A DNA stretch of 64,000 nucleotides from Deltaproteobacteria bacterium (GTDB lineage: Bacteria; UBA10199; JACPAL01), in assembly GCA_016180855.1 (NCBI GenBank), contig JACPAL010000002.1, positions 245,788 through 309,787 on the forward strand, given 5' to 3'. The stretch's first letter is position 1. Each line of letters opens with the position of its first letter. This document shows positions 1,346-52,577 of this stretch, piece after piece. The notes under the pieces are model-generated. The model saw only the letters and a list, made by a program, of their open reading frames with translations. It did not search any database and was not told the DNA's origin. The position numbers and the translations under genes were made by a program.

Positions 1346-1478
1346 CTGACTGCGGTCTCCCACCCTTCAAGGTGGCGACTCAAAACCGCAAGATTTCCCT
1401 CCTTGAAACAGATCTGAAACAAGGCCAATTTAACCATTTGAAAATAAAGTAGTTATTGTCTAGCCTCTTTGGCTCTAT

Positions 1479-1494: not shown

Positions 1495-1520
1495 CACTAA
1501 CGGGGGAGGGGAGGATTACT

Positions 1521-2357: not shown

Positions 2358-2361
2358 CCGT

Positions 2362-2826: not shown

Positions 2827-2845
2827 GGAGAAGGAGAATCTCAGA

Positions 2846-6305: not shown

Positions 6306-6308
6306 ACG

Positions 6309-8528: not shown

Positions 8529-8529
8529 T

Positions 8530-8847
8530 ATGGAAGGCACACCCGATTTTGCCGCGCTTTTTATGAAGATGATCGCGGGGCTCGTTTTGGTGCTCGTGCT
8601 CGCGGTTGTTTTTATCCGCTTTATTCTGCCTCGGACCGGATTGGTGGGAGGGCGCTTCTGGGGAAGGAGGGGGCAGGGGATTGAGGTGAAGGTGTTGGAA
8701 CGTGTCGTTCTGGAACCGAAGAAGAGTCTTTACATCGTCAAACTTTTGGAACGCTATTTTCTGCTAGGCTCGGCAGAGCAATCGTTGAATCTGATTACAG
8801 AGCTGTCAAAAAATGAGGGGGAACAGCTTGAAGGCAAAAATAAATAA
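8530..8847 (+). CDS. FliO-like small membrane protein
   Basis: One N-terminal TM helix is followed by IEVKVLERVVLEPKKSLYIVKLLERYFLLGSAEQSLNLI, which matches the FliO core (..ev....lg.k.sl.lV.v.g..lLLGv....i.ll). It lies immediately 5' of fliP/sctR, as fliO does. Confidence 0.5.
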   Translation: MEGTPDFAALFMKMIAGLVLVLVLAVVFIRFILPRTGLVGGRFWGRRGQGIEVKVLERVVLEPKKSLYIVKLLERYFLLGSAEQSLNLITELSKNEGEQLEGKNK

Positions 8848-35222: not shown

Positions 35223-35310
35223 TCAACAGAATTTTGTTGATTTTTTTGGCTTTGTACATACGTCATAGTCATTACGAGTCGAAGTACTTAGGCGATTGAA
35301 GTTCAAAGGT

Positions 35311-36312
35311 ATGAAAAAAACTGAATTTTCAAAAGAGACCGTTATTGCGGTCGATCTGGGCGGTACCAATCTTCGCGTTGGGGCGGTATCCGCTAAGGGT
35401 GAGGTTTTAGCAGTTGAGAAAATCCCAACGCTTTCGAAGGAGAAGAAAGAGATCGGCCTTGAACAGATCGCCTTGGGCATTGACTCTTTGATACAGAAGA
35501 ATTCACTGGGTCGCCCTTACGCTCTGGCTCTGGGTATCCCCGGAATTGTCGAACAAAAAACCGGGGTTGTTTATTGTTCGCCTCATTTTCCAGACTGGAA
35601 GTCGGTTGAGGCGCGCTCTTATTTTGAAAAGAGGTTTTCCTGCCCGGTGGTCGTTGATAACGATGCCCATATGATCGCCCGTGGAGAGGGCTGGAAGGGT
35701 ACAGGGAAGGGATTAGAACATTTTATTCTTGTGACGCTAGGCACGGGTATTGGCGGCGCCCTGGTCTGTAACAGATCTATTTTTCATGGGGACAGCGGCT
35801 TTGCGGCAGAAATCGGTCACATGGTGATTGAGTCCGAGGGGCGCCCTTGCAACTGTGGGAGCCACGGTTGTTGGGAGATGTATGCCTCGGCAACGGGGCT
35901 TCTCTACGGCATTGAACATGATAAAGTGAAGAATAAGGAAAGGGACAAACTTCTTGAACGGTTTGGCGGTCTTTTGAAGGTGACGGTGGCCAGGCTTTAC
36001 GAATCGGTTCAGGAGGGTGATCTTTACGCCCATGCAGTCTTTCAGAAGTTGGGTTACCATTTGGGTATCGGAATTGCCTCGCTTGTCAATATTACGGGGA
36101 TTGAAACGGTGATTTTAGCGGGCGGTGTCAGTCGCGCCTGGGATTTTTTTGTCGGTCCTATGAAAAAAGAGACAGCCCTCCGGACCTACAAGGAGACCGC
36201 CAGTCGGATTCAGATCAAGCAATCCACATTGGGAGATGAGGCGGGATTGATCGGCGGGTCAGCTGCGTTTTTCCAGAATTTTCAACATCATCGGCAGGAA
36301 GACAAGGGTTGA
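35311..36312 (+). CDS. ROK-family sugar kinase (glucokinase-like)
   Basis: IAVDLGGTNLRVG ATP motif and the ROK zinc motif CNCGSHGCWE. Confidence 0.8.
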   Translation: MKKTEFSKETVIAVDLGGTNLRVGAVSAKGEVLAVEKIPTLSKEKKEIGLEQIALGIDSLIQKNSLGRPYALALGIPGIVEQKTGVVYCSPHFPDWKSVEARSYFEKRFSCPVVVDNDAHMIARGEGWKGTGKGLEHFILVTLGTGIGGALVCNRSIFHGDSGFAAEIGHMVIESEGRPCNCGSHGCWEMYASATGLLYGIEHDKVKNKERDKLLERFGGLLKVTVARLYESVQEGDLYAHAVFQKLGYHLGIGIASLVNITGIETVILAGGVSRAWDFFVGPMKKETALRTYKETASRIQIKQSTLGDEAGLIGGSAAFFQNFQHHRQEDKG

Positions 36313-38619
36313 AAGGAGACAGGTTCCAATCCCCAAGACGGCCAGGAGTCCCATCGAGAAGAGTCCTTTGTGTATCGAGAAAAGAAGCCCTGCAAAGCCA
36401 CCGGCATTAGTCAGAGAGGAGAGGAGGCAGGCAACGCCGGTATCACGCAGGACGGTCTTCAGGGAGCCACGCCCTAGTTCGCGATAACGATGCATGACAT
36501 GAATGGCGTTATCAATACTGACTCCCATGACGGTCGGAAGGATCACCATGTTGTAGAAATTGAGTTTAATGTCGAAGAAGGTCATGAGTCCCAGTAACCA
36601 AAAAACTCCCATTACGATGGAGGTGACCACGAGGGCGGTCTCTGGCATCTTGCGAAAATCCAGATAGACGAAGGTCATAACGAGTAAAAGAGAGAGAAGA
36701 AGAATTCGTGGTACATCGTCAAACATCGTTTGCAGGACGGTGCCATAAATGATGGCGTTGCTGGAGGGGTAATGAGTTTCAACAGGGGTTTTGATCTCTT
36801 TGACTTCGTGGGCAAACTGAATGGCGTTTCGACCATCGTCTAACTGGAGCCGTGGAAGGGCGTTGATAAAAAAGAGCGTTTGGCCATCGGGGAGAGAACC
36901 TTGCATGAGTTCTTTAAGCTCATGGGGAACCTCGGACTCCAAAAAAGGTCTTGTTCTGTTTAAAACCTCCTTGAATTCGTCCAATTTTTTCTTGTCCTCT
37001 CCCTTAACGAGCTTGATGGTCGGGTCGGAAAGCATCTCCTTCATTTCGTTCACGAGCTGCATTTTTTGGTCCTGATCTGCCGGAACGAGATCATAATAAG
37101 AACGGGTTGTATCAATCACGGTTTTTGGTCCTGCTTGATTTTTGAGCGTCTGAACCGTTTCTTTGAGGGCGTCTGCCTCTTCCCGGGACTTTACAATGGT
37201 GACGGCAGGATTGTTAACGCGTGTGGAGGTCTGGTGTTGTTTCTCCTTGGCAAGGCGAACCTCAGGAATGTCGGCCCGTATTTTTTTTGAGTCATATTCA
37301 AAACCGACCCGGAACGGGGAGAAGAACGAGTAAAGACTGAAGAGGAGGAAGCTTGCGAAAAGAATATGAAACCCTCGTTTTTTTGGAACCGGAACATTAA
37401 ATCCACGCAGTTCTTTTTTTTGTATTTTTAACAGACCTATTTTTTCAACAAGGAGGATGAGTGCCGGGAAAAAAGAGAAATAGAGGATAAAAAGGAGAAT
37501 GAGCCCGGTACCTGCAATCAGCCCGAATTCAGAAAAACCGCGGAACTGATTCACAATGAGGAGAAGAAAGGTGATGGCGACCGAGGCGACGGAGGTCAAG
37601 ATCGGTCGACCCATTTCGCGATAGAGATGATGAATCGCCCGCTCCACGTTTTCCCCTGAAGATCGCAAATTGTGGTAACGGCTGAACAGATGGATTCCGC
37701 TCTCAATTCCCAACCCTCCCAGAATGGCAAAAAGAAAAGAGGTGATGACACTCAGTTTCTGAATAAAGAGGGATCCAAAAGAAAAACCAAGTGGAATTCC
37801 CAGAAGGAGAGGCAGAAAAATGAGAAGAACAACGACCAAACTTCTGAAGCGGATGAGGAGAGGCAGGAAAAGTGCGAGTCCTGAAATAAGCCCAGCGACT
37901 TTCAGGTCTCGAATGAGGGCACGATATTCAAGGACTCTGCTGGGGCCGGCCAGATAAAGTTTAATGGTTGGCTCTTTTTGGGAAGGCCGTTCCTCTTCCA
38001 TAAATTCAGACAGGTGATCATAAAAAGTCGAACTGGCTGCGAGATTGTTATCGAATTCCGTTGATTGAACATACATCGTAAAGAGTGTTCCCTCTTCATT
38101 AGTGTAATATTCACTCCGTGCCGCCTCTGAATATTCCTCACGATATTTGTGTTCTAGATCAGAAAAACTGAATTCCTCCTCTCCTCCCAGGTCGATAAGA
38201 AAGCCACCCAGTTTTTCCTTCTGAATCCGCCGGTCAATCCGGTCCCGAATGCTTTGAAGGTCTTCCCGGTCAAGAAAAAGGAGTTTGTTTCGGTCAAAAA
38301 AGTCGTAACCGACTTTTCGATAGTGGACCTCATGCACAAAAGGGAGGCTTTTAAGACGACCTGCAAGGTCCTTCATGTAATGGATCGCTCTTTCGGAATC
38401 GGCTGATTCGAGAACGATACCAATGGTGATCCTTTCATGATAGGCTTCACGAATTTGATGGAGAGTTTTGACATTGGGATGATGAGGAGAGAGAAGATCG
38501 ACCGGATCAGTGCTGATTTTTTTGTAGAGATTGATAGTCGGGATGAGGGACAATCCGCCAAGGGCGAGTGAGACGATGAGGATGAACGGCCAGAATCTTG
38601 TGACGAGTCTCGAGACCAT
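36259..38619 (-). CDS. RND-superfamily exporter (MMPL/SSD family, 2 x 6 TM)
   Basis: Two TM bundles, each followed by a large periplasmic loop. Length and topology resemble HpnN/MMPL transporters. Confidence 0.7.
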   Translation of the reverse strand: MVSRLVTRFWPFILIVSLALGGLSLIPTINLYKKISTDPVDLLSPHHPNVKTLHQIREAYHERITIGIVLESADSERAIHYMKDLAGRLKSLPFVHEVHYRKVGYDFFDRNKLLFLDREDLQSIRDRIDRRIQKEKLGGFLIDLGGEEEFSFSDLEHKYREEYSEAARSEYYTNEEGTLFTMYVQSTEFDNNLAASSTFYDHLSEFMEEERPSQKEPTIKLYLAGPSRVLEYRALIRDLKVAGLISGLALFLPLLIRFRSLVVVLLIFLPLLLGIPLGFSFGSLFIQKLSVITSFLFAILGGLGIESGIHLFSRYHNLRSSGENVERAIHHLYREMGRPILTSVASVAITFLLLIVNQFRGFSEFGLIAGTGLILLFILYFSFFPALILLVEKIGLLKIQKKELRGFNVPVPKKRGFHILFASFLLFSLYSFFSPFRVGFEYDSKKIRADIPEVRLAKEKQHQTSTRVNNPAVTIVKSREEADALKETVQTLKNQAGPKTVIDTTRSYYDLVPADQDQKMQLVNEMKEMLSDPTIKLVKGEDKKKLDEFKEVLNRTRPFLESEVPHELKELMQGSLPDGQTLFFINALPRLQLDDGRNAIQFAHEVKEIKTPVETHYPSSNAIIYGTVLQTMFDDVPRILLLSLLLVMTFVYLDFRKMPETALVVTSIVMGVFWLLGLMTFFDIKLNFYNMVILPTVMGVSIDNAIHVMHRYRELGRGSLKTVLRDTGVACLLSSLTNAGGFAGLLFSIHKGLFSMGLLAVLGIGTCLLSTLVFLPMMLKILEKRS

Positions 38620-38683
38620 AAAAAACTAATCTCAGATTTTTTACTGATTGACAACTTATCGATTTGCCGTGAGAAAATGTCTT

Positions 38684-40132
38684 ATGCCTCTTATCTCTTT
38701 GGATGCTTTTCGAAGGATCCGTCAACAGGATCCTCAGGCCTCTCTTGTCCTTGAGATTCCCTTTGATTTTGAGACCCCGGTTTCTCTGTTTTCCCGCTGG
38801 AAGAATCAAAAGTATGCCTTCTTGCTGGAAAGCGTCGAGGGAGGAGAACAATGGGGGCGATATTCGTTTATCGGCCTTTCCCCCTCATCGGTTTTTCGAT
38901 GTCGTGGAAACGAGGTGGAGATTGAGGAGGGGCGTCAGAAGAAAAAAATTTCAACCCCACATCCTCTGGAAGTCCTGAGACGCTTTGTCGGTCCGTTCCA
39001 TCAAGTGTCTCACCAAAAAACTCCCCTCTTAGGGGGTGCGGTTGGTTATGTTGCCTACGATGCGGTCCGTTTTTTTGAACGATTGCCCGGAAAATCAGCT
39101 CCTGATCTGATTCTCCCTGAGTTCTGTTTCCTCAAGCCGGAGATCCTGCTGGTTCATGACAGGCTGAATCATAACTTGCAGATTCATTTTTTTCCTTCCG
39201 CAGGGCTTTCAGATCAGGAGGCCTACCGACGCGGGCGCCAGGCCATTCAAACTGTTTTAAAGGAGATTCAAAAAAGACCTCGAGGAATTACCTTGAGTGG
39301 TGGGGAAAAACTTTCCTGGAAGGCGAGTCTTTCTCAAGCTGAATTCCAAAAAAAGGTTGAAAGGATCAAGGAGTACATTCTTGCGGGTGATGTGACGCAG
39401 ACGGTTTTCTCCATCCGATTTTCAGCGAGGGGAAAGACCGACCCTTTTGCTGTTTATCGAAGACTCCGACGCATTAACCCTTCGCCGTATCTTTTTTATC
39501 TTAAATTGGGGGAGCAGCAGATTGTCGGGGCCTCTCCGGAAACAATGGTGCGGCTGGAAGAAGGGAAGATGACGCTTCGCCCCATTGCCGGAACACGACC
39601 TCGCGGGAAAACTCATTCGGAAGATCTACAACTTGAGAAAGAGCTTCTGGCCGATCCCAAGGAGAGGGCGGAGCATATCATGCTGGTTGATCTGGGTCGA
39701 AACGACTTGGGACGTGTTGCCAAACCGGGGAGTGTCACGGTGGATGAGTTGATGAGGGTCGAGCGTTACTCCCATGTGATGCATATTGTTTCCAATCTTT
39801 TCGCTGAACTGCAGGAGGGAAAAGACGCCTTTGACCTTTTATCGGCCGCCTTTCCTGCTGGCACATTGACCGGCTCTCCCAAGGTGCGGGCGATGGAAAT
39901 TATTGAGGAGCTCGAACCGGTGCGACGCGGGCTCTACGGCGGTTGCGTCGGCTATTTTTCAACGAATGGCAATATGGACATGGCGATTACGATCCGATCC
40001 GCCTCTTTTTACAAAGGAAAGGTTTATGTGCAGGCTGGAGCAGGGATTGTGGCCGATTCGGATCCTGAAAAGGAATATCAGGAGTGTTTGAATAAGGCGA
40101 AAGGGATGATGGAGGCGATCGAGGGTTCATAA
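38684..40132 (+). CDS. trpE: anthranilate synthase component I
   Basis: Chorismate-binding motifs (LVDLGRNDLGRV, GYFS..G.MDMAITIRS). Start at ATG 38684. Confidence 0.9.
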   Translation: MPLISLDAFRRIRQQDPQASLVLEIPFDFETPVSLFSRWKNQKYAFLLESVEGGEQWGRYSFIGLSPSSVFRCRGNEVEIEEGRQKKKISTPHPLEVLRRFVGPFHQVSHQKTPLLGGAVGYVAYDAVRFFERLPGKSAPDLILPEFCFLKPEILLVHDRLNHNLQIHFFPSAGLSDQEAYRRGRQAIQTVLKEIQKRPRGITLSGGEKLSWKASLSQAEFQKKVERIKEYILAGDVTQTVFSIRFSARGKTDPFAVYRRLRRINPSPYLFYLKLGEQQIVGASPETMVRLEEGKMTLRPIAGTRPRGKTHSEDLQLEKELLADPKERAEHIMLVDLGRNDLGRVAKPGSVTVDELMRVERYSHVMHIVSNLFAELQEGKDAFDLLSAAFPAGTLTGSPKVRAMEIIEELEPVRRGLYGGCVGYFSTNGNMDMAITIRSASFYKGKVYVQAGAGIVADSDPEKEYQECLNKAKGMMEAIEGS

Positions 40133-40180
40133 CGCCCCCCAACCCCCCTCTCTTAGTGTAAGAGAGGGGGACGGGGGGTG
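40133..40180. repeat. REP-like GC-rich palindromic element (core CCCCTCTCTTA-GTG-TAAGAGAGGGG, flanked by C6/G6)
   Basis: Perfect 12-bp stem between trpE and trpG. The same core recurs at 48918..48962. Confidence 0.6.
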
Positions 40181-40200
40181 AGTTATGAGAACAGAAAGGG

Positions 40201-40776
40201 ATGCCTGTTTTGCTCCTTGTCATCGACAACTATGATTCCTTTACCTACAACCTGGTTCAGTATTTTTTGGAACTAGGGGAAGAGGTTAAGGTTTTCAGGA
40301 ATGATGAGATAGGCATTGAAGAGATTCGTGTCCTGAAGCCGGGCCATTTGGTGATCTCACCGGGACCTTGTACCCCGAATGAGGCGGGGATTTCCCTTGC
40401 GGCCGTAAAAGAATTTTCAGGCAAAATTCCGTTGCTCGGTGTTTGCCTCGGTCATCAATCGATTGGCCAGGCGTTTGGGGGCAAAATTGTTCGTGCAAAG
40501 AAGGTGATGCATGGCAAGACCTCGATGATTCACCACGATGGAAAGACCCTTTTTCAAAACATTTCCAACCCCTTTGAAGCGACCCGGTATCATTCGCTCG
40601 TCATCGAAAGAAAATCACTTCCTGATTGCCTGAAAATCACCGCCTGGACCGAGGAGGGGGAGATTATGGGGGTTCGTCACGAAAAACTGTTCGTGGAAGG
40701 GGTGCAGTTTCATCCCGAGTCGATCTTGACGATCGAGGGCAAAAAATTGCTTAAGAATTTTCTAGAGATGAGATGA
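40201..40776 (+). CDS. trpG: anthranilate synthase component II (glutamine amidotransferase)
   Basis: Class I GATase with GVCLGHQ and catalytic His/Glu. Confidence 0.9.
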
Positions 40777-41780
40777 ATAGAGTCTTCCTTGAAAAGTTGT
40801 CTCAAGGTGATTCCTTGACCGACGCCGAAATGGTCTCGGCCATGAAAGAGATCATGTTGGGGAGGGTGGCTGAGGAAGAGATTGTTAATTTTCTTACATT
40901 GCTTCGTAAGAAGGGGGAGAATCCAGAGGAGATCCTGGCGGCTGCCACAGTACTCCGGGAATTTTCTGTTCGTGTGAATGTTCCAACGGACAATCTGGTC
41001 GACACCTGCGGCACCGGAGGGGATGAAAAGGGCTCTTTCAATATCTCCACTGCCGCCGCCTTTGTGGTGGCTGGTTGCGGAGTGGGCGTTGCCAAGCATG
41101 GAAACCGGGCGGTCAGTTCGAGGTCCGGCAGTGCCGATGTTTTGGAGGCGTTGGGGGTTCGGATCGATGTAGAGCCGGTGGTCATGAGGCGTTCGATTCA
41201 GGAGGCGGGGATCGGCTTCTTTTTTGCTCCGCGCTATCACCCGGCGATGAAGAATGTTGCCTCGGCACGAAAAAAAGTTGGCAAGACAATCTTCAACCTG
41301 CTCGGTCCGCTGGCGAACCCCGCCCAGCCGATCTTTCAGGTTGTGGGGATTTATGATCGTTCCCTCATGAAGAGGTATGCGGAGGTACTGAAGCGGCTCG
41401 GGCTCAAGCATGCCCTTGTGGTTCATGGAGAGGACGGGATGGACGAACTGACGCTTACCGGAAAAAGCCATATTGTTGAGTTGTGGGACGATATCATCCG
41501 TGAATACTCGGTGGATCCACGCGATTTTGGCCTGGAGCTGTGCCACCCCTCAGACCTTCAGGGGGGCGATGCCTCCTATAATGCCAATCTCCTGCGTGGA
41601 TTGCTGGAGGGATATGTTTCTCCGTTGCGGGATGTGGTCCTTCTGAATGCTGCGGCGGCGCTCATCGCTGCCAACCGGGTTAAGGAGTTTGGGGAGGGAT
41701 TGATGCTGGCGAATCATGCGTTGGACCAAGGCAGGGCGCGTGGTTGTCTAAAAAAACTTATAGAGATAACGAATGAATGA
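40773..41780 (+). CDS. trpD: anthranilate phosphoribosyltransferase
   Basis: GTGGD motif and an overall TrpD pattern. Confidence 0.9.
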
Positions 41781-41859
41781 GAAAAGCTATTTTTCAACAC
41801 ACCCCTTATCACTTTGAGAAACCATTCTCATTTTGATAATAAGGTCTATCTCTTGGATT

Positions 41860-41888
41860 TTGACCAACCCATTTTCTTTTGTTATAGT
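41860..41888 (+). promoter_or_regulatory. candidate sigma-70 promoter TTGACC-N17-TATAGT
   Basis: Near-consensus -35 and -10 with a 17-nt spacer, inside a 180-nt AT-rich intergenic region. It is upstream of the inserted secreted-protein cassette. Confidence 0.45.
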
Positions 41889-41961
41889 AATAACTTACAG
41901 ATCGGCATTGGGAAAGCCTTGGCATGTCTATTGCTCATTTGACTATCTATACAGGGGCTTT

Positions 41962-44100
41962 ATGAGGCTAGGCCAGATCTTCTTCATCCTTTTTTTGTTA
42001 GTAAGACCTCTCCTCGCGGAACAATCTTTTCGAGCAGGTCAAGATTCGCAACGTCCAACGACAATCTCTCCGGCACTCGGCCAAGGCGTGAGCGAGATCC
42101 GGTATAACCAGATCAAGACGCCGCAGTTTCTTTTTGAAGAGATTTTACCGGAGGCCTCGATCTTGAACGGTGGTCTGGGGAATGGGAGAGGGGGAAATCC
42201 CGATCCATCCTACTTTTGCAGCGGTCAGGATGAGGTGATTGCCTACCGCAGGCAGATGGGGTTAGGCGGAGCAGAAGAATTTAATCCAAATGTGGGGGCG
42301 GGAAATCAGGGCAGTTATAGAGTGGCCCGGATTATTGATCGCTGTCGGACAGAAGGGGGCTGTGGTTCCGTTCCGGCGGATGGAAAATCATTTCTCATTG
42401 GCTCTCCCAAATATGCAACGAACTGTCACCCGTGGGGGGAGGGCCGGTTTTGGGACAATACGGCGCTTCAGAGCCCAAGCGTTCGTGAGAATTCTTTCAG
42501 CACTCCACCGAATAACCCCCTCCATTTCCGCTGGTCCTGGAGGAACTATATCGATGATGGAAAAAGCCTCCTGTTTGGCCGGTACCTTTTTCACCAATTG
42601 GCAGAGAACCTCACGGGAGACCGATTAAGAACCGAGGCGGTGAACCGGCTCTCCCTCCGGATGAATGCGACCAACCGGTATGGAAGGGACGAGGCGGATC
42701 CTTATCTTGTTTATGCAACCCCTCCGCAATTTCTGGATATCCCGTATAGTCTGGATCATCTCACCTGGGGATTTACCTGTGCGGAGATTGCCAGGAACGG
42801 TGGTTACCAATCGAACCCCGTTTTTAGGGGTCGAAGCTGGGCGGCCACTGGAAGAGATCAGGCGATGGACGTGGAGTGGCTTGACCATCACCGAACCCTG
42901 CTCGAATTTGTCCGGGACGATTTAGGGTCCCGAATAGCGCGGAGGGATTTTGGGAATATCTATCCGCGAGTCCCGGGGGATGTTCGAAACGGGTTGACCG
43001 TAAACGAGCGGGGGATAGCAGAGATTGTCGTGAATATCTGGACAATCTTAAACAAGATGCTCTCGCGCGTGGAGTGGGGAGCTTGTACCGATGCGACCTG
43101 CCGGGCGCGGCAGCGGTTCCGCTCCCTGTTTGGGTTAAGAAGGATCGAGATCCGGAGCTGTCGTGAGTTAGCCGGCGGCTCCCTCGTCGATTACCGCCAC
43201 GAGGAACGGCTGCTTTGTGTCAAATCCGAGATAGCGAGCGATTGCCACAGCAAGCGGGCGAAAGAGGCCGACTCTCATTATAATGTTCATGGGGAGGGGC
43301 TCTGGGGGGCTGCGGGAAGATGTTTCCTTTCTTATGGGGAATGGCGGGGTGGCGGAATCTACGAGCGGGCGTATGAGACCGCTCAGGGGTACCAGCTCCG
43401 GGATCGTGGGGAGACGATCGGTGCGATCCATGGGAACGTCGGTTATCGGTCACCGGATGGTTACAGCCCCGTGATCGCCTCGTTGATAGCTCATCAATTG
43501 GTTCATGCCTATTTTCAAAGGGAGCTGGAGATGAACCGGATGATCGGTTGGCCAAACAACCCGGAGGCACTCTACGAGGAGGAGCTTGCCGTGATGGCAC
43601 AGGCGGCGGTCTTCACGCATCTGCGCTGGATGGGGTATGCCGACAAGACATTTAAAATGGAGAAGGAGGGGTTTATCCGATCGATCACGCGTGCGACGCC
43701 GGGGAATCGGAACTCCCGTGTGGTCGATGCGACAATGGGGGAACGGTTTTTGTATCCACAGGGGTGTCGTGGGTATGGCGGGATTTTTTTGGGCCCCTTT
43801 TGCGCCAACATGAGATCGATCTACAGTGCACTCCGGAACGAACGGAATCCGGAATTGGCGCGTATGCTGGCGCTCTACCATGCGAAGGGGCCGACGCTCA
43901 CGCCACCGGCACGGATGATGGTGAATGGTCAGGACCAGGCGTTTCGCCTCGCGAGCGATCAGGCTGAGGTGATTCAACCGGATGCCGGGCGAATGCAGCA
44001 GATGAGGGAGGGGGAACAGAGGATGCAGGATTCCTCCCCCACCCCTGAAGAGATGTCGGATGACCCGCAACCGTTCCGGTTTGAGGGAGACGTAGAATGA
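41962..44100 (+). CDS. secreted hypothetical protein (712 aa)
   Basis: Signal peptide MRLGQIFFILFLLVRPLLA at ATG 41962. Many Trp/Arg/Cys residues. No recognisable catalytic motif. Confidence 0.55.
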   Translation: MRLGQIFFILFLLVRPLLAEQSFRAGQDSQRPTTISPALGQGVSEIRYNQIKTPQFLFEEILPEASILNGGLGNGRGGNPDPSYFCSGQDEVIAYRRQMGLGGAEEFNPNVGAGNQGSYRVARIIDRCRTEGGCGSVPADGKSFLIGSPKYATNCHPWGEGRFWDNTALQSPSVRENSFSTPPNNPLHFRWSWRNYIDDGKSLLFGRYLFHQLAENLTGDRLRTEAVNRLSLRMNATNRYGRDEADPYLVYATPPQFLDIPYSLDHLTWGFTCAEIARNGGYQSNPVFRGRSWAATGRDQAMDVEWLDHHRTLLEFVRDDLGSRIARRDFGNIYPRVPGDVRNGLTVNERGIAEIVVNIWTILNKMLSRVEWGACTDATCRARQRFRSLFGLRRIEIRSCRELAGGSLVDYRHEERLLCVKSEIASDCHSKRAKEADSHYNVHGEGLWGAAGRCFLSYGEWRGGGIYERAYETAQGYQLRDRGETIGAIHGNVGYRSPDGYSPVIASLIAHQLVHAYFQRELEMNRMIGWPNNPEALYEEELAVMAQAAVFTHLRWMGYADKTFKMEKEGFIRSITRATPGNRNSRVVDATMGERFLYPQGCRGYGGIFLGPFCANMRSIYSALRNERNPELARMLALYHAKGPTLTPPARMMVNGQDQAFRLASDQAEVIQPDAGRMQQMREGEQRMQDSSPTPEEMSDDPQPFRFEGDVE

Positions 44101-46700
44101 AGAGGGCTCTCTTTTTGTTCCTCACACTTTTTTTGATCTCGCGGATCGCGACAGCGATGGAGATCCCTCCCCGTTTGAACCTGTTCCATGATGAGGAGGA
44201 ATCGGGGTGTCGAACAGAAGAGGTCCAATCCCGGGGCGACGATCCAATCCTGCGTGAAAACGACTGTCACCGTGAGATCTGTGGCGGGAATTTCTGGGGA
44301 CTCTCGGCAGTGGATGTTTGTTGCAATGATCAGGAGATCATTGAGGGGGGGATGACCTATAACCGATGTTGGATGAGGAGACCGACCCGGTATCGGGCGG
44401 AGGAGGCGTGGAGGGATGTTTCATTTCCGCGTCGTATTGAAAATCCGATCGGTTGTGGCAATCATCTGGTCTCTGTCGAAGAATATACGGGGTCGGAAAC
44501 AACTCTTGCCGATTTCATCCTTCCAGATCTTTATGCCGATCCGGCGGAAGCCTCTCAGTCACCGTTCCCCTGGTCTGGTGTGGAGACACTGACGGTCTCG
44601 AATACGGCCGCTGTTATTGCCGATATCATTGAGGTTGCCTTGGCGAATGGAGATCCTCAGGAGGTGGGGGAGGAAGGTTCTCTGTTCAGACGGTGGGTGG
44701 AGGATACCTGGATGGCCTCCCGGTTCGTGGCCCATGTGATGTCCCCTATCGGGTTTCCGGTCTGTCCACCCCAACTGACCGGGCTCTGTGATTTTATCGG
44801 GCACCGGGTGGAGGGAAACTGGGCCAATCTGATCAGCACTTGGGGATCGACCCATCACTTGAACAGTTTTGTGATTGAGAGAGAGTTTGCCAACCCAAAC
44901 CTGCTCGCGCTTGTCATGGGGATCTCGATTCATGAGACAACGCATATCCTGTTTCATTGGACCCGCGGGCTTTTTGAGGATTTTACGAGCCCCGCTTTTG
45001 ATTACAATTTCATCTCGCCTCCTGATCCGGTGCTCAATTATGAGGATGAGATGTCCGCCTCCATGGTTGGTATCATTGCCTTTCATTTTCTATCTCCCGG
45101 GGTTCGGGGAATGTTGCCGGCGGAGATGCGGTATGTAGAGAATTCTTATGAAAATATTTTTGCGAATCTCCTTGTTGATGGAGGTAACAATCTTGCTGAA
45201 AGACTTCAGGAATCTTATGTGTACACATTTTTTTGGACGTCTTTGACCCCGGAACAACAGAACGAAATCCTTGGGTGTGTTGACTGGATGTTTGAGCACT
45301 CCAGTGGTCGCTTATCACCCAACGATCAGGAGGCGTCCAGGAATATGTTGGTCTTCTGTATTGGAGAGGAACTGGGTAACACGGATGCGGTGGCCCTCCT
45401 GCAGCAGCTGAACAACAGATTGCTGGGAAGGGGGGGTGGAAACGGGATTGGAAGTGGGGGAGGAGGGGATGGCACGTTGGCGATCAGTCCCCACGCCGAT
45501 CTCCATCATGATTATCTTGAGAGCCCGGACGTAGAGGGCGGACCCGGCGGTTCCTCTGAATATGAGGCCCCTGCCGAAGGGTTTGACTGGGACTACCCCG
45601 GCAACTTTCAGGGCCCGAATGACCCGAACAACTTCCCTAATCAGAACTACCCCCCTGAATCCTGTGTGGAGGCGATGGCAAATCCAACCTTCGCTGATCT
45701 CATCCCATCGGAGTGTGCCAACTGGTGCTGGGACCATTTTGAGGGGGGACGGGATGGCAATGGGATCTGTGAGCGGATCACCAATAGGGATGTAGAGGAA
45801 GACTGCCGGCTTTCAACAGGGGGTCGGTGTGAGGCGGGGGAGGCGACTCGAAGAGGGGATTGTGAGACGGATCGTTCATACCAGACCTCTGATTTTTGTG
45901 TCGATGCTTGTGGGAGTTCCGGGAGTCTTGGCTATTGTGATGACCTCTGTCTGCAGAATCATACCTACCGGTTCTGCGATAATATCTGCCGGCGTGGGGA
46001 TAACTACGGGCTTCCGTTTTGTGATGAGATCTGCCGGGACGATTTCTCACCTGATTTTTGTTGGAGTCGGTGCCGGTATGTGAGTGACTCCCCAGGGTAT
46101 TGCGAGTCTATTTGTAATGCGACTCCTCGGAGTGATATGTGTGATCGCCGTTGTGAGAGGAACTTTGCGGGTTATTGTCGAACGAGGTGTGATGAATCAC
46201 CCGGTCTGGGGTTTTGCGAGGAGTGGTGTGAGGAGCGTCCGACCGAGTCGTTTTGTACGCCGGAGGAGGGGGCGGGCGGTGAGAGTGAGATTGTCGGTTC
46301 TGACGTGATCGACTGCCCGGTCGGTTGGTTTACGACAATCGGGACGTTGTATATGAATGATATTGATCTCATCCGGTGGGATCTTGGTGGGTCGGTAGAC
46401 GAGGTTCAGGAGGAGGTGTTGCGGGCGTATCTGGAACACTACGACCATTGCGATCCGTATGTGGGGCGGATGATCTGTTGCCGCCTGGCAAGGGGGGAGG
46501 AGGTCTGCCTCCCCGATGGAGACAATGATGCCTGTGAAGAGGGGGGATACTGTGGTTGCCCTGTTCTTACTCCTAATGAAGAAGTCTTTGAGGGGTGTTG
46601 TATGCATCCAGACGACGGGGTGATAGCGGATCATCAGTGCCTGTTGATGGGGGAAGGCTGTTCTTGTCTCCGGCAGGCGATCAGGGGGTCTTGTTGGTGA
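44097..46700 (+). CDS. secreted Cys-rich repeat protein (867 aa) with HExxH motif
   Basis: Signal peptide MKRALFLFLTLFLISRIATA. HETTH is present at about 44920. Nine tandem repeats of roughly 13 aa with pattern [FY]-C-[DE]-x-x-C, then a second Cys-rich C-terminal domain. Confidence 0.6.
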   Translation: MKRALFLFLTLFLISRIATAMEIPPRLNLFHDEEESGCRTEEVQSRGDDPILRENDCHREICGGNFWGLSAVDVCCNDQEIIEGGMTYNRCWMRRPTRYRAEEAWRDVSFPRRIENPIGCGNHLVSVEEYTGSETTLADFILPDLYADPAEASQSPFPWSGVETLTVSNTAAVIADIIEVALANGDPQEVGEEGSLFRRWVEDTWMASRFVAHVMSPIGFPVCPPQLTGLCDFIGHRVEGNWANLISTWGSTHHLNSFVIEREFANPNLLALVMGISIHETTHILFHWTRGLFEDFTSPAFDYNFISPPDPVLNYEDEMSASMVGIIAFHFLSPGVRGMLPAEMRYVENSYENIFANLLVDGGNNLAERLQESYVYTFFWTSLTPEQQNEILGCVDWMFEHSSGRLSPNDQEASRNMLVFCIGEELGNTDAVALLQQLNNRLLGRGGGNGIGSGGGGDGTLAISPHADLHHDYLESPDVEGGPGGSSEYEAPAEGFDWDYPGNFQGPNDPNNFPNQNYPPESCVEAMANPTFADLIPSECANWCWDHFEGGRDGNGICERITNRDVEEDCRLSTGGRCEAGEATRRGDCETDRSYQTSDFCVDACGSSGSLGYCDDLCLQNHTYRFCDNICRRGDNYGLPFCDEICRDDFSPDFCWSRCRYVSDSPGYCESICNATPRSDMCDRRCERNFAGYCRTRCDESPGLGFCEEWCEERPTESFCTPEEGAGGESEIVGSDVIDCPVGWFTTIGTLYMNDIDLIRWDLGGSVDEVQEEVLRAYLEHYDHCDPYVGRMICCRLARGEEVCLPDGDNDACEEGGYCGCPVLTPNEEVFEGCCMHPDDGVIADHQCLLMGEGCSCLRQAIRGSCW
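45894..46262 (+). repeat. nine in-frame tandem 39-42-nt repeats encoding [FY]C[DE]xxC modules
   Basis: FCVDAC / YCDDLC / FCDNIC / FCDEIC / FCWSRC / YCESIC / MCDRRC / YCRTRC / FCEEWC visible in the translation. Confidence 0.7.
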
Positions 46701-46855
46701 TGGGCACCTCGAAAAACTACCCATCTGCTGTGTTGCCCGCTTCGGCCGTGTCCTCACGTACCACGAAAGTACCCTCCGGTCGCGGCCTTGAGGGCGCCTT
46801 GCATCTGGGCCGTTTTTCGGGGTGCCCGAAAATTTGCATTATTAGGGGTTCCCTG

Positions 46856-47404
46856 GTGAGATTTTTATTATTGATCGGGATGTTTTTAAATCTCCTCACA
46901 CCTCCCCTGTGGGGTGCTGGGGATCCGGTCGAAGGATTCCGGAAGAGATATCTCTCACGGGAATTTAGATATGAAAAGGAGATGAGTCTTGAGGCCAAGG
47001 ACGGTTTTTTTCCGATTCGTGGCGTTCCTAAAAAGGAAGGAGAGGGGGCTCTCGCCCCGAAGATCATCAAACCAACCATTGCCGTCTTTACGACCAATCT
47101 CGATTTTGAAGGGGTGAGGCGGATGTTTCAATTAAAGAAGGTTGAACTGGAGTTGTGGGACAAAGAGGCGGCGCAAAAACAGAGGGTGAAGCGGCCGCCC
47201 CTCGGTGAAACGAGGGAGGGGCAGGATCATTTGAAGAATCGATTAGAGATACCGAATTACCAGAGCGGTTCAGTCCGGATGGAGGATGGGTCGATCCTCC
47301 TGCTGAAAAGCCATTATTACCACACCAAGGATAAGACCTGGATCAAGAAGACAACAGTTACCTGGATTGGTGTTCCCCCATCACCGTCTCAAACGGTTCA
47401 TTGA
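46856..47404 (+). CDS. small secreted hypothetical protein
   Basis: In-frame GTG gives MRFLLLIGMFLNLLTPPLWGAG, a signal-peptide-like start. The ORF track start at 46595 would overlap the previous gene; the true start is uncertain. Confidence 0.35.
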   Translation: MRFLLLIGMFLNLLTPPLWGAGDPVEGFRKRYLSREFRYEKEMSLEAKDGFFPIRGVPKKEGEGALAPKIIKPTIAVFTTNLDFEGVRRMFQLKKVELELWDKEAAQKQRVKRPPLGETREGQDHLKNRLEIPNYQSGSVRMEDGSILLLKSHYYHTKDKTWIKKTTVTWIGVPPSPSQTVH

Positions 47405-47447
47405 CTTTTTGGGATAGATCCTCAACAAACTGTTAGACACGTTAACG

Positions 47448-48272
47448 ATGTGGCTGGGTAAAATTTTAAAATACAAACAGGAAGAACTGGAGGCGATTAA
47501 GAGAAAGAGATCTCTTAAAGATGTAAGGCTCCAGGCGGAGGATCAAGAGAGAGCACGGGGGTTTGCGGATTCCCTCACCCACCCTTCGGGTCCCCCCTCT
47601 CCCGCAAGGGGAGAGGGTAACAAGGCTTGGATCATTGCCGAGATAAAAAAGGCCTCTCCGTCGGCAGGGCTCCTTCGACCGGAGTATGATCCGATCGGCA
47701 TCGCACAAATGTATGAAGAGAACGGGGCCTCCGCGATCTCTATTCTGACCGATCGGCATTTTTTTCAAGGGGATCTCTCGGATCTCACAAAGGTCCGTCA
47801 GGTCGTCAGGCTGCCTGTTTTAAGGAAAGACTTCATCTTTGATGAGTATCAGATTTATGAGGCACGAGGAGCCGGTGCTGATGCGGTTCTCTTGATTGTG
47901 CGCCTTCTGGAGGGCTCCCAGCTTGAGGATTATCTTGCCTTGGCCCACGGTCTGGGGATGGCGGCGCTCGTGGAGGTTCACGATGAAAACGATTTGAATC
48001 GTGCCGTTTCGTCGGGTGCCGGACTGATCGGTGTCAACAACCGTGATCTCGATTCCCTGAAGACGGATGTTGCGGTGACGGAGCGGCTCGCCCCGAAGGC
48101 CCCGAAAGAATCGCTTCTTGTCTCCGAATCGGGCATTTCAACAAGAAAAGAGGTTGAAAGATTGCAAAAGGTGGGGGTGAACTGTTTTTTGATAGGGGAG
48201 TCGTTGCTTCGAGAAAAAGAGCCGGGACAAGCCCTAAAGGGCTTATTATCCCCACCCTGTCCCTCCCCTTAA
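47448..48272 (+). CDS. trpC: indole-3-glycerol phosphate synthase
   Basis: IAEIKKASPSAG...VLRKDFI motif set. Confidence 0.9.
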   Translation: MWLGKILKYKQEELEAIKRKRSLKDVRLQAEDQERARGFADSLTHPSGPPSPARGEGNKAWIIAEIKKASPSAGLLRPEYDPIGIAQMYEENGASAISILTDRHFFQGDLSDLTKVRQVVRLPVLRKDFIFDEYQIYEARGAGADAVLLIVRLLEGSQLEDYLALAHGLGMAALVEVHDENDLNRAVSSGAGLIGVNNRDLDSLKTDVAVTERLAPKAPKESLLVSESGISTRKEVERLQKVGVNCFLIGESLLREKEPGQALKGLLSPPCPSP

Positions 48273-48297
48273 TTTAAGGGGAGGGTGAGGGAGGGGA
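48250..48297. repeat. REP-like palindromic element variant (CCCTCCCCTT-AATTT-AAGGGGAGGG)
   Basis: A 10-bp perfect stem with an imperfect outer extension overlaps the trpC stop. Confidence 0.5.
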
Positions 48298-48300
48298 TAT

Positions 48301-48915
48301 ATGGTTAAGGTCAAGATCTGCGGCATTACTAATTTGGATGATGCCCTCGATGCGGTGGAGTTTGGTGCCGATGCCTTAGGATTCAACTTCTGGCCCGATT
48401 CACCACGTTTCATCCAGCCGGGGCAGGCCAAGAAAATGATGGAGGATCTCCCCCCCTCTGTCTGGAGGGTCGGGGTCTTTGTGAATGAGGCGTATGAGAA
48501 GGTTCGGGATATCGCTGTGGACCTTGCCCTTGATTACGTCCAGTTTCATGGGGATGAACTCCCCTCCTACTGTGACCAGTTTGCTACCCCGCATTGGAAG
48601 GGGTTTCGCCTGAGAAGTGAAGCAGATCTTGAACTCATGAAAAAATATCATTGTGATTACTTCCTCGTCGATTCTTGCATCGAAAAGATGTACGGTGGAA
48701 CCGGTGTTACTGGGAACTGGGAGTTGGCACGAAAGGCAAAGGAATTCGGCAAGATTTTCCTGGCGGGGGGGCTGACGCCGGAGAACGTGCAGACCGCGAT
48801 TCGTGTGGTCCGACCGGCGGGAGTTGATGTGGCAACCGGTGTCGAGGAGACACCGGGGAGAAAGAACCGGTTCAAGTTAGAGGAGTTTATTACGAAGGCA
48901 AAGGGTGTGTCATAA
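48301..48915 (+). CDS. trpF: phosphoribosylanthranilate isomerase
   Basis: VKICGIT...GADALGFNF PRAI pattern. Confidence 0.85.
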   Translation: MVKVKICGITNLDDALDAVEFGADALGFNFWPDSPRFIQPGQAKKMMEDLPPSVWRVGVFVNEAYEKVRDIAVDLALDYVQFHGDELPSYCDQFATPHWKGFRLRSEADLELMKKYHCDYFLVDSCIEKMYGGTGVTGNWELARKAKEFGKIFLAGGLTPENVQTAIRVVRPAGVDVATGVEETPGRKNRFKLEEFITKAKGVS

Positions 48916-48917
48916 CT

Positions 48918-48962
48918 CACCCCCGGCCCCTCTCTTACATTAAGAGAGGGGAGTTCGGGGGG
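48918..48962. repeat. REP-like GC-rich palindromic element (core CCCCTCTCTTA-CAT-TAAGAGAGGGG, flanked by C5/G6)
   Basis: Same 11-bp arms as the element at 40133..40180. Lies between trpF and trpB. Confidence 0.6.
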
Positions 48963-48999
48963 TATGTGGAAAAAGAGAAATTATTGGGAGGGGGCGTTA

Positions 49000-50142
49000 A
49001 TGAAAGGTCACTTTGGTACGTTTGGTGGCCAATTCGTCGCCGAGACACTCATGCCGGCCTTGAAGGAACTCGAGTTGGCCTACGAGAAGGTAGCCAAGTC
49101 AGCTTCTTTCAAAAAAAGATACCATGAGCTGGCCCGGACCTACGTCGGTCGTCCAACGCCGCTCTATCATGCGCGACATCTCTCTGAAAAACTGAAAGGG
49201 GCCCAGATTTTTCTGAAAAGGGAGGACCTCTGCCACACGGGCGCCCACAAGATCAACAACACGCTCGGTCAGTGTCTGCTTGCGAAAGAGATGGGGAAGC
49301 AGAGGGTCATTGCCGAGACGGGAGCGGGGCAGCATGGTGTAGCAACGGCGACGATGGCCGCCCTGCTGGGACAGGAGTGCGAGGTCTACATGGGAGAAGA
49401 GGACATCCAGCGCCAGTCGCCGAATGTTTTCAGGATGAAAATCCTTGGTGCAAAGGTGATCCCGGTTTTGTCAGGCTCAAGGACCCTGAAGGACGCCCTC
49501 AATGAGGCGCTTCGCGATTGGATCACGAATATCCGGACGACGCATTATTGCATCGGCTCTGTGGCCGGTCCTCATCCTTACCCGACCATGGTGCGTGATT
49601 TTCAATCGGTTATCGGAAAAGAGACAAAAAGGCAGCTTACGAAAACCCCTGATTATCTCATCGCCTGTGTGGGAGGAGGCTCCAACGCGATCGGTCTTTT
49701 TTATCCTTTTTTGAAAGAGCGTCATGTCAGAATGTTTGGGGTTGAGGCGGCTGGGGCGGCGACCCTTTGCAAGGGGCGGGTTGGTGTGCTTCATGGCTCC
49801 AAGTCGTACCTCCTCCAAAACAGCGAAGGGCAGGTGAATGAGACCCACTCCATTTCTGCCGGTCTCGATTATCCGGGAGTAGGACCGGAACATAGTTTTC
49901 TAAAAACAACCGGCAGGGTTCACTATGTGACGGTCAACGACCGACAGGCGATGGAGGGATTTTCTCTTTTGACTGAGACAGAGGGGATCATCCCGGCGCT
50001 TGAGTCATCCCATGCTATTTATTACGCGGGTCGCCTTGCGAGACGTCTGCCCCGAAACAAGGTCATTGTGGTCAATCTCTCCGGACGGGGGGATAAGGAT
50101 CTTGCGACAGCAGCGAGGTATTTGGGGTTATGTCACGCATAA
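49000..50142 (+). CDS. trpB: tryptophan synthase beta chain
   Basis: [13 protein letters not shown] start; the PLP lysine motif HTGAHKINN is present. Start at ATG 49000 behind a G-rich RBS. Confidence 0.9.
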
Positions 50143-50909
50143 ATTTAAAGTTTTGGGAGCTTAAAGCGCAGAAAAAAAAGGCGCTGATTCCGTTTATTGT
50201 GGCCGGCACTCCTTCTCTTAACATCACCAAGAAGCTGATCTTGGCCCTCGAAAAGGTGGGGGCCGACATCATCGAACTCGGTGTCCCTTTTTCCGACCCG
50301 ATGGCGGATGGTCCGGTGATCCAGAGGGCGAGTGAGAAGTCACTCGCTGCCGGGACAAGTTTAAAAAAGATCCTCGGCCTTATCAGAGACGTTCGAAGAG
50401 AGACAGAGATTCCGATCTTGCTCATGGGATATTACAACCCGATTCTCTCCTACGGTCTCCGACGTTATGCGGTTGATGCCGCGCGTGCCGGGGTTGATGC
50501 GACATTGGTGGTTGATCTCCCCCCTGAAGAATCTCTCGAATTGGATCGTGAGTTAAAGAGGGTTGGGATTGATCTGATTTATCTCCTGGCCCCCACGTCA
50601 GGAAGGGAACGGATCCGGCTTGTCGCCAAGAGGGGGAGGGGATTTATCTATTTCGTTTCAATGACCGGTGTGACCGGTTCACGACTTAAAAACCGGCCGG
50701 AGATCAAAGGCCACGTGGCGTTGATACGTCGCCACACAGGTCTTCCGATTGCCGTTGGCTTTGGTGTGAAATCCCCCTCTGACGCGAGACAGGTCGCGCG
50801 CCTTGCCGATGGTGTTGTTATCGGGAGTGAGTTGGTGAGGAGGATCTCATCGTCATCTCACCCCCTTCGTGCCGCGGGCTCTTTTTTGAGTGCAATCGGA
50901 AAGATCTAG
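50130..50909 (+). CDS. trpA: tryptophan synthase alpha chain
   Basis: [13 protein letters not shown]...[15 protein letters not shown] signature. Overlaps the trpB end. Confidence 0.9.
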
Positions 50910-50932
50910 GGGCAGGCCTAAATGCCTGCCCC
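50909..50932 (+). terminator. hairpin GGGGCAGGC-ctaaat-GCCTGCCCC after trpA
   Basis: A 9-bp perfect stem starts at the trpA stop codon. Confidence 0.4.
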
Positions 50933-50959
50933 CACCGCCACCCACAACTTTTCCTTGTT

Positions 50960-51538
50960 TTGACCGAAAATAAACCCATGGGATTGATCGGCAGCAAAAC
51001 GTTTCCTGTCAGAGGTGTTTTACACGACAGCCTCCACAACCTCTCTCAAATTATTGCCTCTGTGAGTTGCGACAAGCTGTTACCGTTGGTCCGTGAGAAG
51101 CCTTTGACAGAGGAATTCAGGGCACAACTCTTGAGCAGATACCGCCAGGCCCACGAGGATTTGGCAACGGTTCTCGGTCGGTTTGATCCAACACGAAATC
51201 CCACCGTGAAAAGGGAAGAGCTGGCACTTTATATTGGTTATCTGGATCGTCTCTTCAGCGAGGCCGCCTCAACGCTGGATGCCTCGGATCAAATATCCGC
51301 TTATCAGACGATCGGTGACCTTTTAACCCGTTGCCGGCCTGTCCGAAATTTGGATAACAATCTGTGTCTTTACACCGCCTGGCGGCAGTCAGCGGATCGC
51401 GTTCGCAGATTTGATCTGGGCCAAATTTTAGGGGCCCTTCTCACCTTTGCCCGCGAGACCCGTCCCGAGTTTTTGCAGCCGGGGACCTTGTCGGTTTTTG
51501 CAGGTGGAGTTTCTTGCGCAACAAGAGGGGCGTTGTGA
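50960..51538 (+). CDS. hypothetical protein (192 aa)
   Basis: ORF with consistent codon usage; no recognisable motif. Confidence 0.4.
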   Translation: MTENKPMGLIGSKTFPVRGVLHDSLHNLSQIIASVSCDKLLPLVREKPLTEEFRAQLLSRYRQAHEDLATVLGRFDPTRNPTVKREELALYIGYLDRLFSEAASTLDASDQISAYQTIGDLLTRCRPVRNLDNNLCLYTAWRQSADRVRRFDLGQILGALLTFARETRPEFLQPGTLSVFAGGVSCATRGAL

Positions 51539-52104
51539 CGATAACTTCACTGATGTCGATCGACAGCCTCCAACAACTTGCCCGCCTCTGTGAAGAGGCA
51601 GGGGAATACGCCTCCTGGCTTGGTGATGAGATCGAAGAGGCGAACTGGGGGGATGATTGGAATCGGCCTCGACCTCGTCCGCTCCGTGGTGGGTGGGTTC
51701 ATTTTACAAAGTTGGATCAGGAGTTTACCGAACCGGCTGTGGCGGTCCTGCATGAGGCAAAGATGCACCGCATCGTCGAAACGTTACGCAGTTTCTCCGG
51801 CGGAGAGGGCGCCTCTGGAAGGCTCCACAGGACGTTTGCGGGATTTGGCCATCTTGTTCCGTGGGCTGATGAGGGAGATCTCCTGGCCCGCTCTTTTACC
51901 CATCCGGTCGGTGGGGCGGCGTACCAGTTGGGTCAAAGACTTAAATTAAGGGCCTACGAGTTGCAACAGTTACGCCTGCAGATCGTGGCCGAGATCGAAT
52001 CACTTGCTCGTTTGGGGAAGGGCGGGACTGCTGCCCCGATGGCAGCTCTAGTGGGAGTTCTCGTATTAACAGGAATTTTCTCCCAGATAAGACACACAGA
52101 GTAA
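51514..52104 (+). CDS. hypothetical protein (196 aa) with C-terminal TM helix
   Basis: Overlaps the previous ORF, which is operon-like. Confidence 0.4.
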   Translation: MRNKRGVVTITSLMSIDSLQQLARLCEEAGEYASWLGDEIEEANWGDDWNRPRPRPLRGGWVHFTKLDQEFTEPAVAVLHEAKMHRIVETLRSFSGGEGASGRLHRTFAGFGHLVPWADEGDLLARSFTHPVGGAAYQLGQRLKLRAYELQQLRLQIVAEIESLARLGKGGTAAPMAALVGVLVLTGIFSQIRHTE

Positions 52105-52121
52105 GGAGTTAAACAACAAAC

Positions 52122-52577
52122 ATGGTTGTTGATTCCAGAACACAAGTTCTAGGTTACTTAACGCAGGGAGCTCAATCCCTCATGCGGGTCTTGGACGAGA
52201 GGAGTAAGATTCCTGGGGTTTTTCTCAAAGTCTTGGAGCCGGGGGAAGCAGCAGAGGTTGCTCGGGAGCTCAGGGCGTTGTTAGGGCAGAGGGATCCACT
52301 CAGACTTGCGCTCGGTCTTCGGTCGTCAAGAGCTTACCAATTTTATCAAAGCGACCTGACGTGCCCCTCCATTTTCGGAAGGGTTGTAGAGGCTGTTAGG
52401 GAGGGTGGAGTTGAAAGAGGAGCGAGGACTATCTACGATTATGAGGTCGATATGGTTAATTTTTATACCTCCGTTTTGTCCTTCTCTCCTGGTATCTCAT
52501 TCGAGGCGGGTGTGGGGGTTATTTCTGGGATAAGAGAATGTTTCTGGATGCCTCCTGTTCACCTGATTTGGAGTTAA
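52122..52577 (+). CDS. hypothetical protein (151 aa)
   Basis: ORF only. Confidence 0.35.
   Translation: MVVDSRTQVLGYLTQGAQSLMRVLDERSKIPGVFLKVLEPGEAAEVARELRALLGQRDPLRLALGLRSSRAYQFYQSDLTCPSIFGRVVEAVREGGVERGARTIYDYEVDMVNFYTSVLSFSPGISFEAGVGVISGIRECFWMPPVHLIWS

Follow-up and report, generated by a model that had tools for sequence, protein, structure and literature searches.

A 5.67-kb operon of three predicted exported proteins lies between trpD and trpC in the trp operon of an uncultured groundwater bacterium

We analyzed a 64,000-nucleotide stretch of DNA (the window; all coordinates are positions within it), which is part of a 311,577-bp contig of a metagenome-assembled genome (MAG) annotated 'Deltaproteobacteria bacterium'. 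The host is an uncultured groundwater bacterium, and the assignment of genes to its bin was taken at face value from the locus tags. In the window, we found a set of seven trp genes in which trpD and trpC are separated by a cassette of three genes, which we call A, B and C (cassette locus tags HYT77_01430 and HYT77_01435). Upstream of the cassette are trpE (anthranilate synthase I; 38648–40132, + strand; Pfam Chorismate_bind, 1.6e-98, and Anth_synt_I_N), trpG (glutamine amidotransferase; 40201–40776, +; GATase, 4.2e-62) and an intact trpD (anthranilate phosphoribosyltransferase; 40773–41780, +; Glycos_transf_3, 1.1e-89, and Glycos_trans_3N). Downstream are an intact trpC (indole-3-glycerol phosphate synthase; 47448–48272, +; IGPS, 1.3e-87, covering residues 3–265), trpF (48301–48915, +; PRAI, 3.2e-42), trpB (48964–50142, +; PALP, 1.5e-45) and trpA (50130–50909, +; Trp_syntA, 8.2e-85). 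According to the listing of open reading frames (ORFs) and the Pfam matches, all seven genes have full-length domain coverage and lie on one strand (+) in the canonical order trpEGDCFBA; the start of trpE is possibly the ATG at 38684 instead, and the gene call on an independently assembled contig (L001) is 482 amino acids (aa) long. From the trpD stop to the trpC start there are exactly 5,667 bases (41781–47447), which hold the three + strand genes and break the contiguity of a canonical trp operon.

The gap opens with a 181-nt, AT-rich leader between trpD and A (41781–41961, +; 36% guanine plus cytosine, GC) that has no terminator-like site and contains a sigma-70-like promoter sequence at 41860–41888 (+), TTGACC-17-TATAGT with a TG extension (TG-n-TATAGT), which matches the consensus at 10 of 12 positions. 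Gene A (41962–44100, +) encodes a predicted exported protein of 712 aa; its start codon follows an AGGGG ribosome-binding site at a distance of 7 nt, and the homologous proteins align with their N-termini at this Met. Gene B (44097–46700, +) encodes a predicted exported protein of 867 aa with 51 Cys, and its start overlaps the A stop as ATGA. Because the two reading frames overlap or abut at every locus where we found the module, their arrangement suggests that A and B are translationally coupled. The spacer between B and C is filled by a long imperfect hairpin of 126 nt (46702–46827, +). Gene C (46856–47404, +) encodes a predicted exported protein of 182 aa with a GTG start; the mechanically called ORF begins at 46595, and we placed the start at GTG 46856 because AGGGG precedes it and the homologues, which align only from the signal peptide onward, have their N-termini there. 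A 43-nt spacer (47405–47447, +) without promoter-like or terminator-like sites then leads to trpC. By-eye inspection of the N-termini of A, B and C found a basic residue, a hydrophobic run of 12–15 residues and a cleavage motif of small residues, all of which are kept in the homologues, and the three proteins are predicted from these features to be exported by Sec. The original prediction, made from the letters of the window, had described two co-oriented blocks of trp genes separated by three signal-peptide proteins, with an AT-rich leader of about 180 nt and a near-consensus sigma-70 site at 41860; the Pfam identities, coordinates and composition given above bear out this description, with export judged by eye.

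Since the window derives from a MAG, one alternative is that the cassette is an assembly or binning artefact in which unrelated DNA was joined. A contig of the Logan assembly of run SRR12113431 (L001) matches window 35262–45808 at 100% identity, and a contig from the separate run SRR12113425 (L089) matches window 41737–46729 at 100% identity. These two assemblies of two runs are identical across the trpD–A junction, and this junction is therefore independently reproduced. The independent contigs end at 46729 and 47550, which leaves 46730–47549, including the C–trpC junction, unconfirmed between them; exact look-ups of TrpC and C for independent contigs returned no match, and the contigs found for TrpF were too short. 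However, both contig ends coincide with very stable hairpins, a frequent cause of assembly breaks, and codon usage is homogeneous over the whole region. With the trpD–A junction reproduced, we consider an artefact extremely improbable.

To compare the trpD–trpC junction with that of other bacteria, we scanned 185,579 species-representative genomes with TrpD, which gave 80 loci with matches from Thermodesulfobacteriota, Dadabacteria, Aquificota and others, 68 of them with enough downstream sequence. We found that trpC begins less than 300 nt past trpD in 39 of the 68 loci (median 33 nt). Inserts of 0.7–2 kb separate the two genes in three loci, none of them comparable to 5.67 kb, and A and B have no relatives in any of the 80 TrpD loci. 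One of the inserts, on the Thermodesulfobacteriota chromosome OZ242012.1 (L041, 11021–12930), is an IS607-like pair that consists of a 219-aa MerR/resolvase-type protein and a 417-aa TnpB-like protein. The other two, in MAGs labelled Omnitrophota and Vermiphilus (L057, 10944–13738, and L071), each hold a 217-aa ORF. Because these three loci carry small inserts at the same place, the trpD–trpC junction appears to be tolerant of insertions. As a separate observation, L057 and L071 also have a 452-aa TrpB-like gene between trpC and trpF. Comparison of gene order, with trpD and trpC contiguous in 39 of 68 loci and a self-contained module that stands in other contexts elsewhere, supports the view, as had been proposed, that the cassette was inserted into a trpEGDCFBA operon that is canonical in other respects.

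The same loci bear on the alternative that trpEGD and trpCFBA were never contiguous and are independent sub-operons that flank an unrelated operon, with trpC served by a promoter of its own in or after C. Split trp operons are common (PMC2395257), trpC is absent downstream of trpD in 26 of the 68 loci, and the hairpin between B and C could end the cassette transcript. However, the usual split is EGDC / FBA and not EGD / CFBA (PMC2395257), while the seven genes here share one strand and the canonical order. The spacer from C to trpC is just 43 nt long, neither it nor the 3' region of C has a promoter-like site on the + strand, and other copies of the module have quite different neighbors. On balance, separate sub-operons seem rather unlikely. 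Gene insertions, like split operons, belong to the known variations of the trp operon, including the trpF-trpB-X-trpA order of Burkholderia (Xie et al., 2003, as summarized in PMC2395257). The cassette resembles such insertions, Burkholderia X among them, in that genes unrelated to tryptophan stand between co-oriented, intact trp genes. Unlike the trp inserts known from that summary, it is a 5.67-kb operon of three predicted exported proteins with its own promoter region, located at trpD/trpC, and it is larger than any insert in the 68 loci that we compared. Unrelated genes in trp operons are thus already known, and the locus described here is an unusually large example that carries a rare, uncharacterized module.

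We recovered the B family by an exhaustive HMMER search in which the first 470 residues of B were compared with 1.84 billion representative proteins. Only 15 proteins (clusters) had E < 0.001, and a scan of Joint Genome Institute (JGI) metagenomes added a single locus; the family is very rare. The module is present in at least seven other loci, none of them adjoining trp genes. In one (L002), mlaE, mlaF and mlaD are followed by A-B-C and then purH. In two (L004 and L005), the module lies 3' of an acyltransferase gene, and in another (L006), it lies 3' of a transglutaminase-core gene. The gene order is B-C-A in L003, and L007 and L088 are further copies on truncated contigs. In L093 (GCA_016180845.1, JACPAK010000004.1, MAG HYT76), A-B-C stands between dapB and dapA/dapF/lysA on the strand opposite the dap genes. 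The L093 block (1173–12245), which as a whole splits the dapB/dapA/dapF/lysA cluster, also includes a pair of paralogous porin-like proteins (236 and 213 aa), which both end in GLFFEW and flank the module, and it continues with two paralogous proteins of unknown function (634 and 705 aa) that have an HEIxGH motif.

Copies of the module are also found within the genome bin of the window. Locus tags place at least three B paralogues in this bin, HYT77_01435 (the window copy), HYT77_08830 and HYT77_06405, and the remaining named members of the B family fall in sibling bins that the same project produced (HYT76, HYW02, HY539 and HYY44); in this small clade of groundwater bacteria, the family is multi-copy. 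Nearest to the window module is the L002-type copy, HYT77_08830, with 47–48% identity in A and 44–49% in B. Because this closest relative is a paralogous copy in the same bin, the data point to relocation of a lineage-specific, multi-copy module, which explains them better than import from outside.

The original prediction had taken the cassette for a horizontally acquired module and had called for a comparison of its composition with the flanks. We calculated synonymous codon usage z values relative to the rest of the window and found –0.44 for A, +1.59 for B and –0.43 for C, and –1.92 to +0.45 for the trp genes. The GC content at third codon positions (GC3) is 0.61 in A and 0.58 in B, within a window range of 0.46–0.73. 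A, B and C are therefore typical of the window in codon usage, as are A and B in GC3, and the cassette does not have the deviating composition of a genomic island. Genes that are clearly atypical in codon usage do occur elsewhere in the window (10701–15143 and 51514–52577; z –3 to –7.5). No integrase, transposase or recombinase domain was found in the cassette or in the neighboring genes that we scanned, no flanking direct or terminal inverted repeats and no adjacent tRNA were found at the cassette, and no relatives of its proteins were found in viral contigs or plasmids. On these grounds we rejected a mobile element.

These results also bear on a recent horizontal acquisition, in which a foreign island would have newly landed in the trp operon. 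Such an event would be in keeping with the differing contexts of the module in different genomes, with the AT-rich leader that the cassette has of its own, and with the GC content of A in 500-nt windows (0.53–0.58), which is slightly above that of trpE/trpG (0.47–0.54). Against it stand the typical codon usage (with z values down to –7.5 in atypical genes elsewhere) and GC3, the lack of any sign of mobility, the paralogues in the same bin and the confinement of the family to a few sibling bins. We consider recent import improbable, and the claim of horizontal acquisition, if it means recent foreign DNA, was not supported.

We then considered how the genes downstream of the cassette might be transcribed. 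The promoter-like sequence at 41860–41888 is the best of seven such sites in the 14 kb that we scanned (38000–52000), and it is plausible as a cassette promoter but statistically unproven. In the other copies of the module, the region upstream of A is likewise AT-rich (34–44% GC) and has promoter-like hexamers with 8–10 of 12 matches. Because this is so at each locus, the module has the appearance of an autonomous transcription unit. Neither terminator-like sites nor unusually stable structures were found in the two outer spacers (41781–41961 and 47405–47447), and no + strand promoter-like site was found between 44437 and the interior of trpC. Because nothing terminator-like or promoter-like is found at the C–trpC junction, we infer that trpCFBA most likely depend on transcription that passes through the cassette; co-transcription of cassette and trpCFBA is the simplest reading of the junction.

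A complicating structure within the cassette is the hairpin between B and C, with a folding energy of –68.5 kcal/mol (z = –4.64). No shuffled sequence folded as stably, and no U-tract follows the hairpin. The other module copies do not have such a spacer; their B and C genes abut or overlap. The hairpin could attenuate, process or stabilize the transcript, and the palindrome could be a small inserted palindromic element, an attenuator or a processing site. In the trp operons of E. coli and Salmonella, an internal promoter, trp-p2, reportedly lies in distal trpD, as is said to have been described by Jackson & Yanofsky in 1972 and by Horowitz & Platt in 1982. From it, the distal trp genes can be expressed without the main, regulated promoter. 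The candidate promoter of the cassette would be analogous in that it lies inside the operon and upstream of trpC and might drive the distal trp genes; unlike trp-p2, it belongs to the insert and lies 5.6 kb upstream of trpC. Work on trp-p2 as an internal promoter is listed among the references of PMC3311589.

Transcription through the cassette raises the alternative that the location is functional, in that a protease module would be kept in amino-acid clusters so that starvation-induced transcription drives extracellular proteolysis. Two copies lie inside clusters for amino-acid biosynthesis, namely the trp genes of the window and dapB/dapA/dapF/lysA of L093, a third precedes purH, purD and purE, and in the window the orientation of the genes and the lack of terminators permit read-through from the trpE promoter. 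However, the L093 module is on the strand opposite the dap genes, so it is not co-transcribed with them, other copies adjoin unrelated genes, the module retains its own promoter region, protease activity is a prediction and few loci were sampled. We therefore regard functional coupling as quite unlikely.

To examine what the cassette proteins might do, we compared the sequences of A and B with those of their relatives and inspected AlphaFold models of the two proteins. In B, the motif HETTH is found at residues 279–283 and is followed by a nearly invariant Glu, E318, 35 residues past the second His. In an alignment of the B domain from 12 sequences with 28% mean identity, there are only five invariant columns, namely the H, E and H of HExxH and a GG pair; two further family members do not have the HExxH motif. 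The B model has a mean predicted local distance difference test (pLDDT) score of 62.8, with values of 70–94 over most of residues 155–445, and places three short strands ahead of a helix with HETTH (267–289) and a second helix with E318 (311–330), a candidate for the third zinc ligand. Because strands, HETTH helix and E318 helix follow one another in this order, the topology fits that of gluzincins. B is like gluzincins (thermolysin-like clan MA(E)) in having an invariant HExxH on a predicted helix after a small beta-sheet and a nearly invariant Glu about 35 residues further on, on the next predicted helix. Unlike the described gluzincin families, B has no profile or fold match, so that its membership is a motif-based prediction. 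We propose tentatively, and with somewhat more doubt than confidence, that B may be an exported zinc metallopeptidase of gluzincin type that belongs to an undescribed family.

Further towards its C-terminus, B has nine tandem 13-residue [FYW]-C-x3-C repeats (residues 601–711, encoded at 45897–46229, +), each of which forms one short helix in the model, and it also has Cys-rich terminal domains. Arrays of 9–12 such repeats are present in 7 of 10 full-length B relatives. Twin CX3C helix-hairpin proteins are known as the small Tim proteins of mitochondria. As in small Tim proteins, the CX3C motifs of B lie on short predicted helices, and linkage by disulfides is conceivable; unlike them, B has nine to twelve repeats in tandem, is a predicted exported protein of a bacterium and has no sequence relationship to them, and the likeness is one of analogy only.

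Protein A has HQLVH at residues 511–515 in place of HExxH, together with an invariant Glu, E540. Its homologues are 31–48% identical, and their motif varies: it is HQxxH in L002, L003, L004 and L093, HExxH in L006 and L088, and HALIE in L007. The A model has a mean pLDDT of 56.6 and a predicted template modeling score (pTM) of 0.66 and shows a hairpin followed by a helix with HQLVH (502–522) and a helix with E540 (534–556). Some A proteins terminate in DUF11/CLIPPER repeats. A shares its local layout with B and resembles a degenerate zincin; since the window copy has HQxxH, it is probably a non-catalytic partner of B, with which it may form a complex. In a profile-profile comparison, the alignment of A with B was confined to the motif region (probability 1.6%), and we therefore make no claim of paralogy between them. 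C homologues are found downstream of B in L002, L003, L004, L006 and L093, and C would be a small exported accessory protein. Searches of A, B and C against Pfam, NCBIfam, PADLOC and PHROGs returned no match, and PDB sequence-profile searches with full-length alignments of A and B and with the cropped B domain returned noise or nothing. Foldseek matched the B model to rhodopsin-like structures with E ≥ 0.2, and we discarded these matches as helical-bundle noise.

Taken together, these data lead us to favor, as probable and by no means secure, a tolerated insertion of the A-B-C operon that is old or arose within the lineage, with trpCFBA transcribed through the cassette and B acting as a metallopeptidase. 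An ancestrally contiguous trpEGDCFBA operon would have been interrupted between trpD and trpC by the lineage-specific operon, which would have arrived with its own leader and promoter and left both flanking trp genes intact. The insertion could be old, or the multi-copy module could have been duplicated and moved to this site within the lineage. The genes trpCFBA would now be served by the trpE promoter through read-through, by the cassette promoter or by both, with the cassette promoter acting like the internal trp-p2 of E. coli. B would be an active zinc metallopeptidase, A its non-catalytic partner and C an accessory protein, all of them exported by Sec.

Several observations weigh against this account. 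The best TrpD match is only 51% identical, so the ancestral state is judged from distant phyla, and the loci without trpC downstream of trpD mean that trpD/trpC splits exist. No second contig extends over the C–trpC junction. Promoter-like sites in the scanned 14 kb are at chance level (7 found, 7.9 expected), and the B–C hairpin could terminate or process transcripts ahead of C and trpC. Motifs and predicted topology are the whole of the case for B as a metallopeptidase, with no sequence match in Pfam, NCBIfam or the PDB behind it. Foldseek searches of the A and B models, which are of moderate quality, gave no significant match in the PDB, and the profile-profile comparison of A with B was not significant. 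A more far-reaching version would make A-B-C an undescribed exported zinc-protease complex, with B active and carrying a new, disulfide-zipped CX3C repeat, A a pseudo-protease and C an accessory, coupled by selection to starvation-induced transcription for protein scavenging via the trp and dap/lys clusters; we hold this to be a long shot.

If the favored account is correct, a textbook biosynthetic operon can take up an unrelated 5.7-kb operon between two of its genes without losing its integrity, and the locus would be a natural test case for the tolerance of operons to insertions and for their gain of internal promoters. The locus also draws attention to a very rare, uncharacterized family of large predicted exported proteins that combine zincin motifs with an unusual array of CX3C repeats. 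The cassette proteins and this array are the most original part of the findings; neither the locus nor the family overturns current understanding.

Other parts of the window have features of their own. Codon usage departs furthest from that of the rest of the window at 10701–15143, where a gene for an AAA_14/DUF4143 ATPase on the – strand (z = –7.5) adjoins a 1027-aa ORF (z = –5.9) that has no Pfam match; as candidates for foreign DNA, these genes outrank the cassette. Between trpA and leuS (50960–52577), there are three co-oriented ORFs of 192, 196 and 151 aa (z = –1.7, –3.1 and –3.5), none of which has a Pfam or NCBIfam match.

At the head of the operon, only about 64 nt (38620–38684) separate trpE from a divergent MMPL transporter gene, which leaves no space for a leader peptide. 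No trp leader, attenuator or T-box was found upstream of trpE, and no Rfam family reached threshold anywhere in the window. A perfect TTGACA is present near trpE at 38648–38653 without a good –10 hexamer, and the trpE mRNA leader would be very short if ATG 38684 is the start codon. Hairpins are also found between trp genes. One lies between trpC and trpF (48247–48299), with 26-nt arms and a folding energy of –43.3 kcal/mol (z = –5.1), and its apex sequence has no second copy in the window; another, between trpE and trpG (40136–40178), has 20-nt arms. The two are alike in build, with a C-rich arm, a TTAA or TAA apex and a G-rich arm, and they could be elements similar to repetitive extragenic palindromes (REP-like) that stabilize or process the mRNA.

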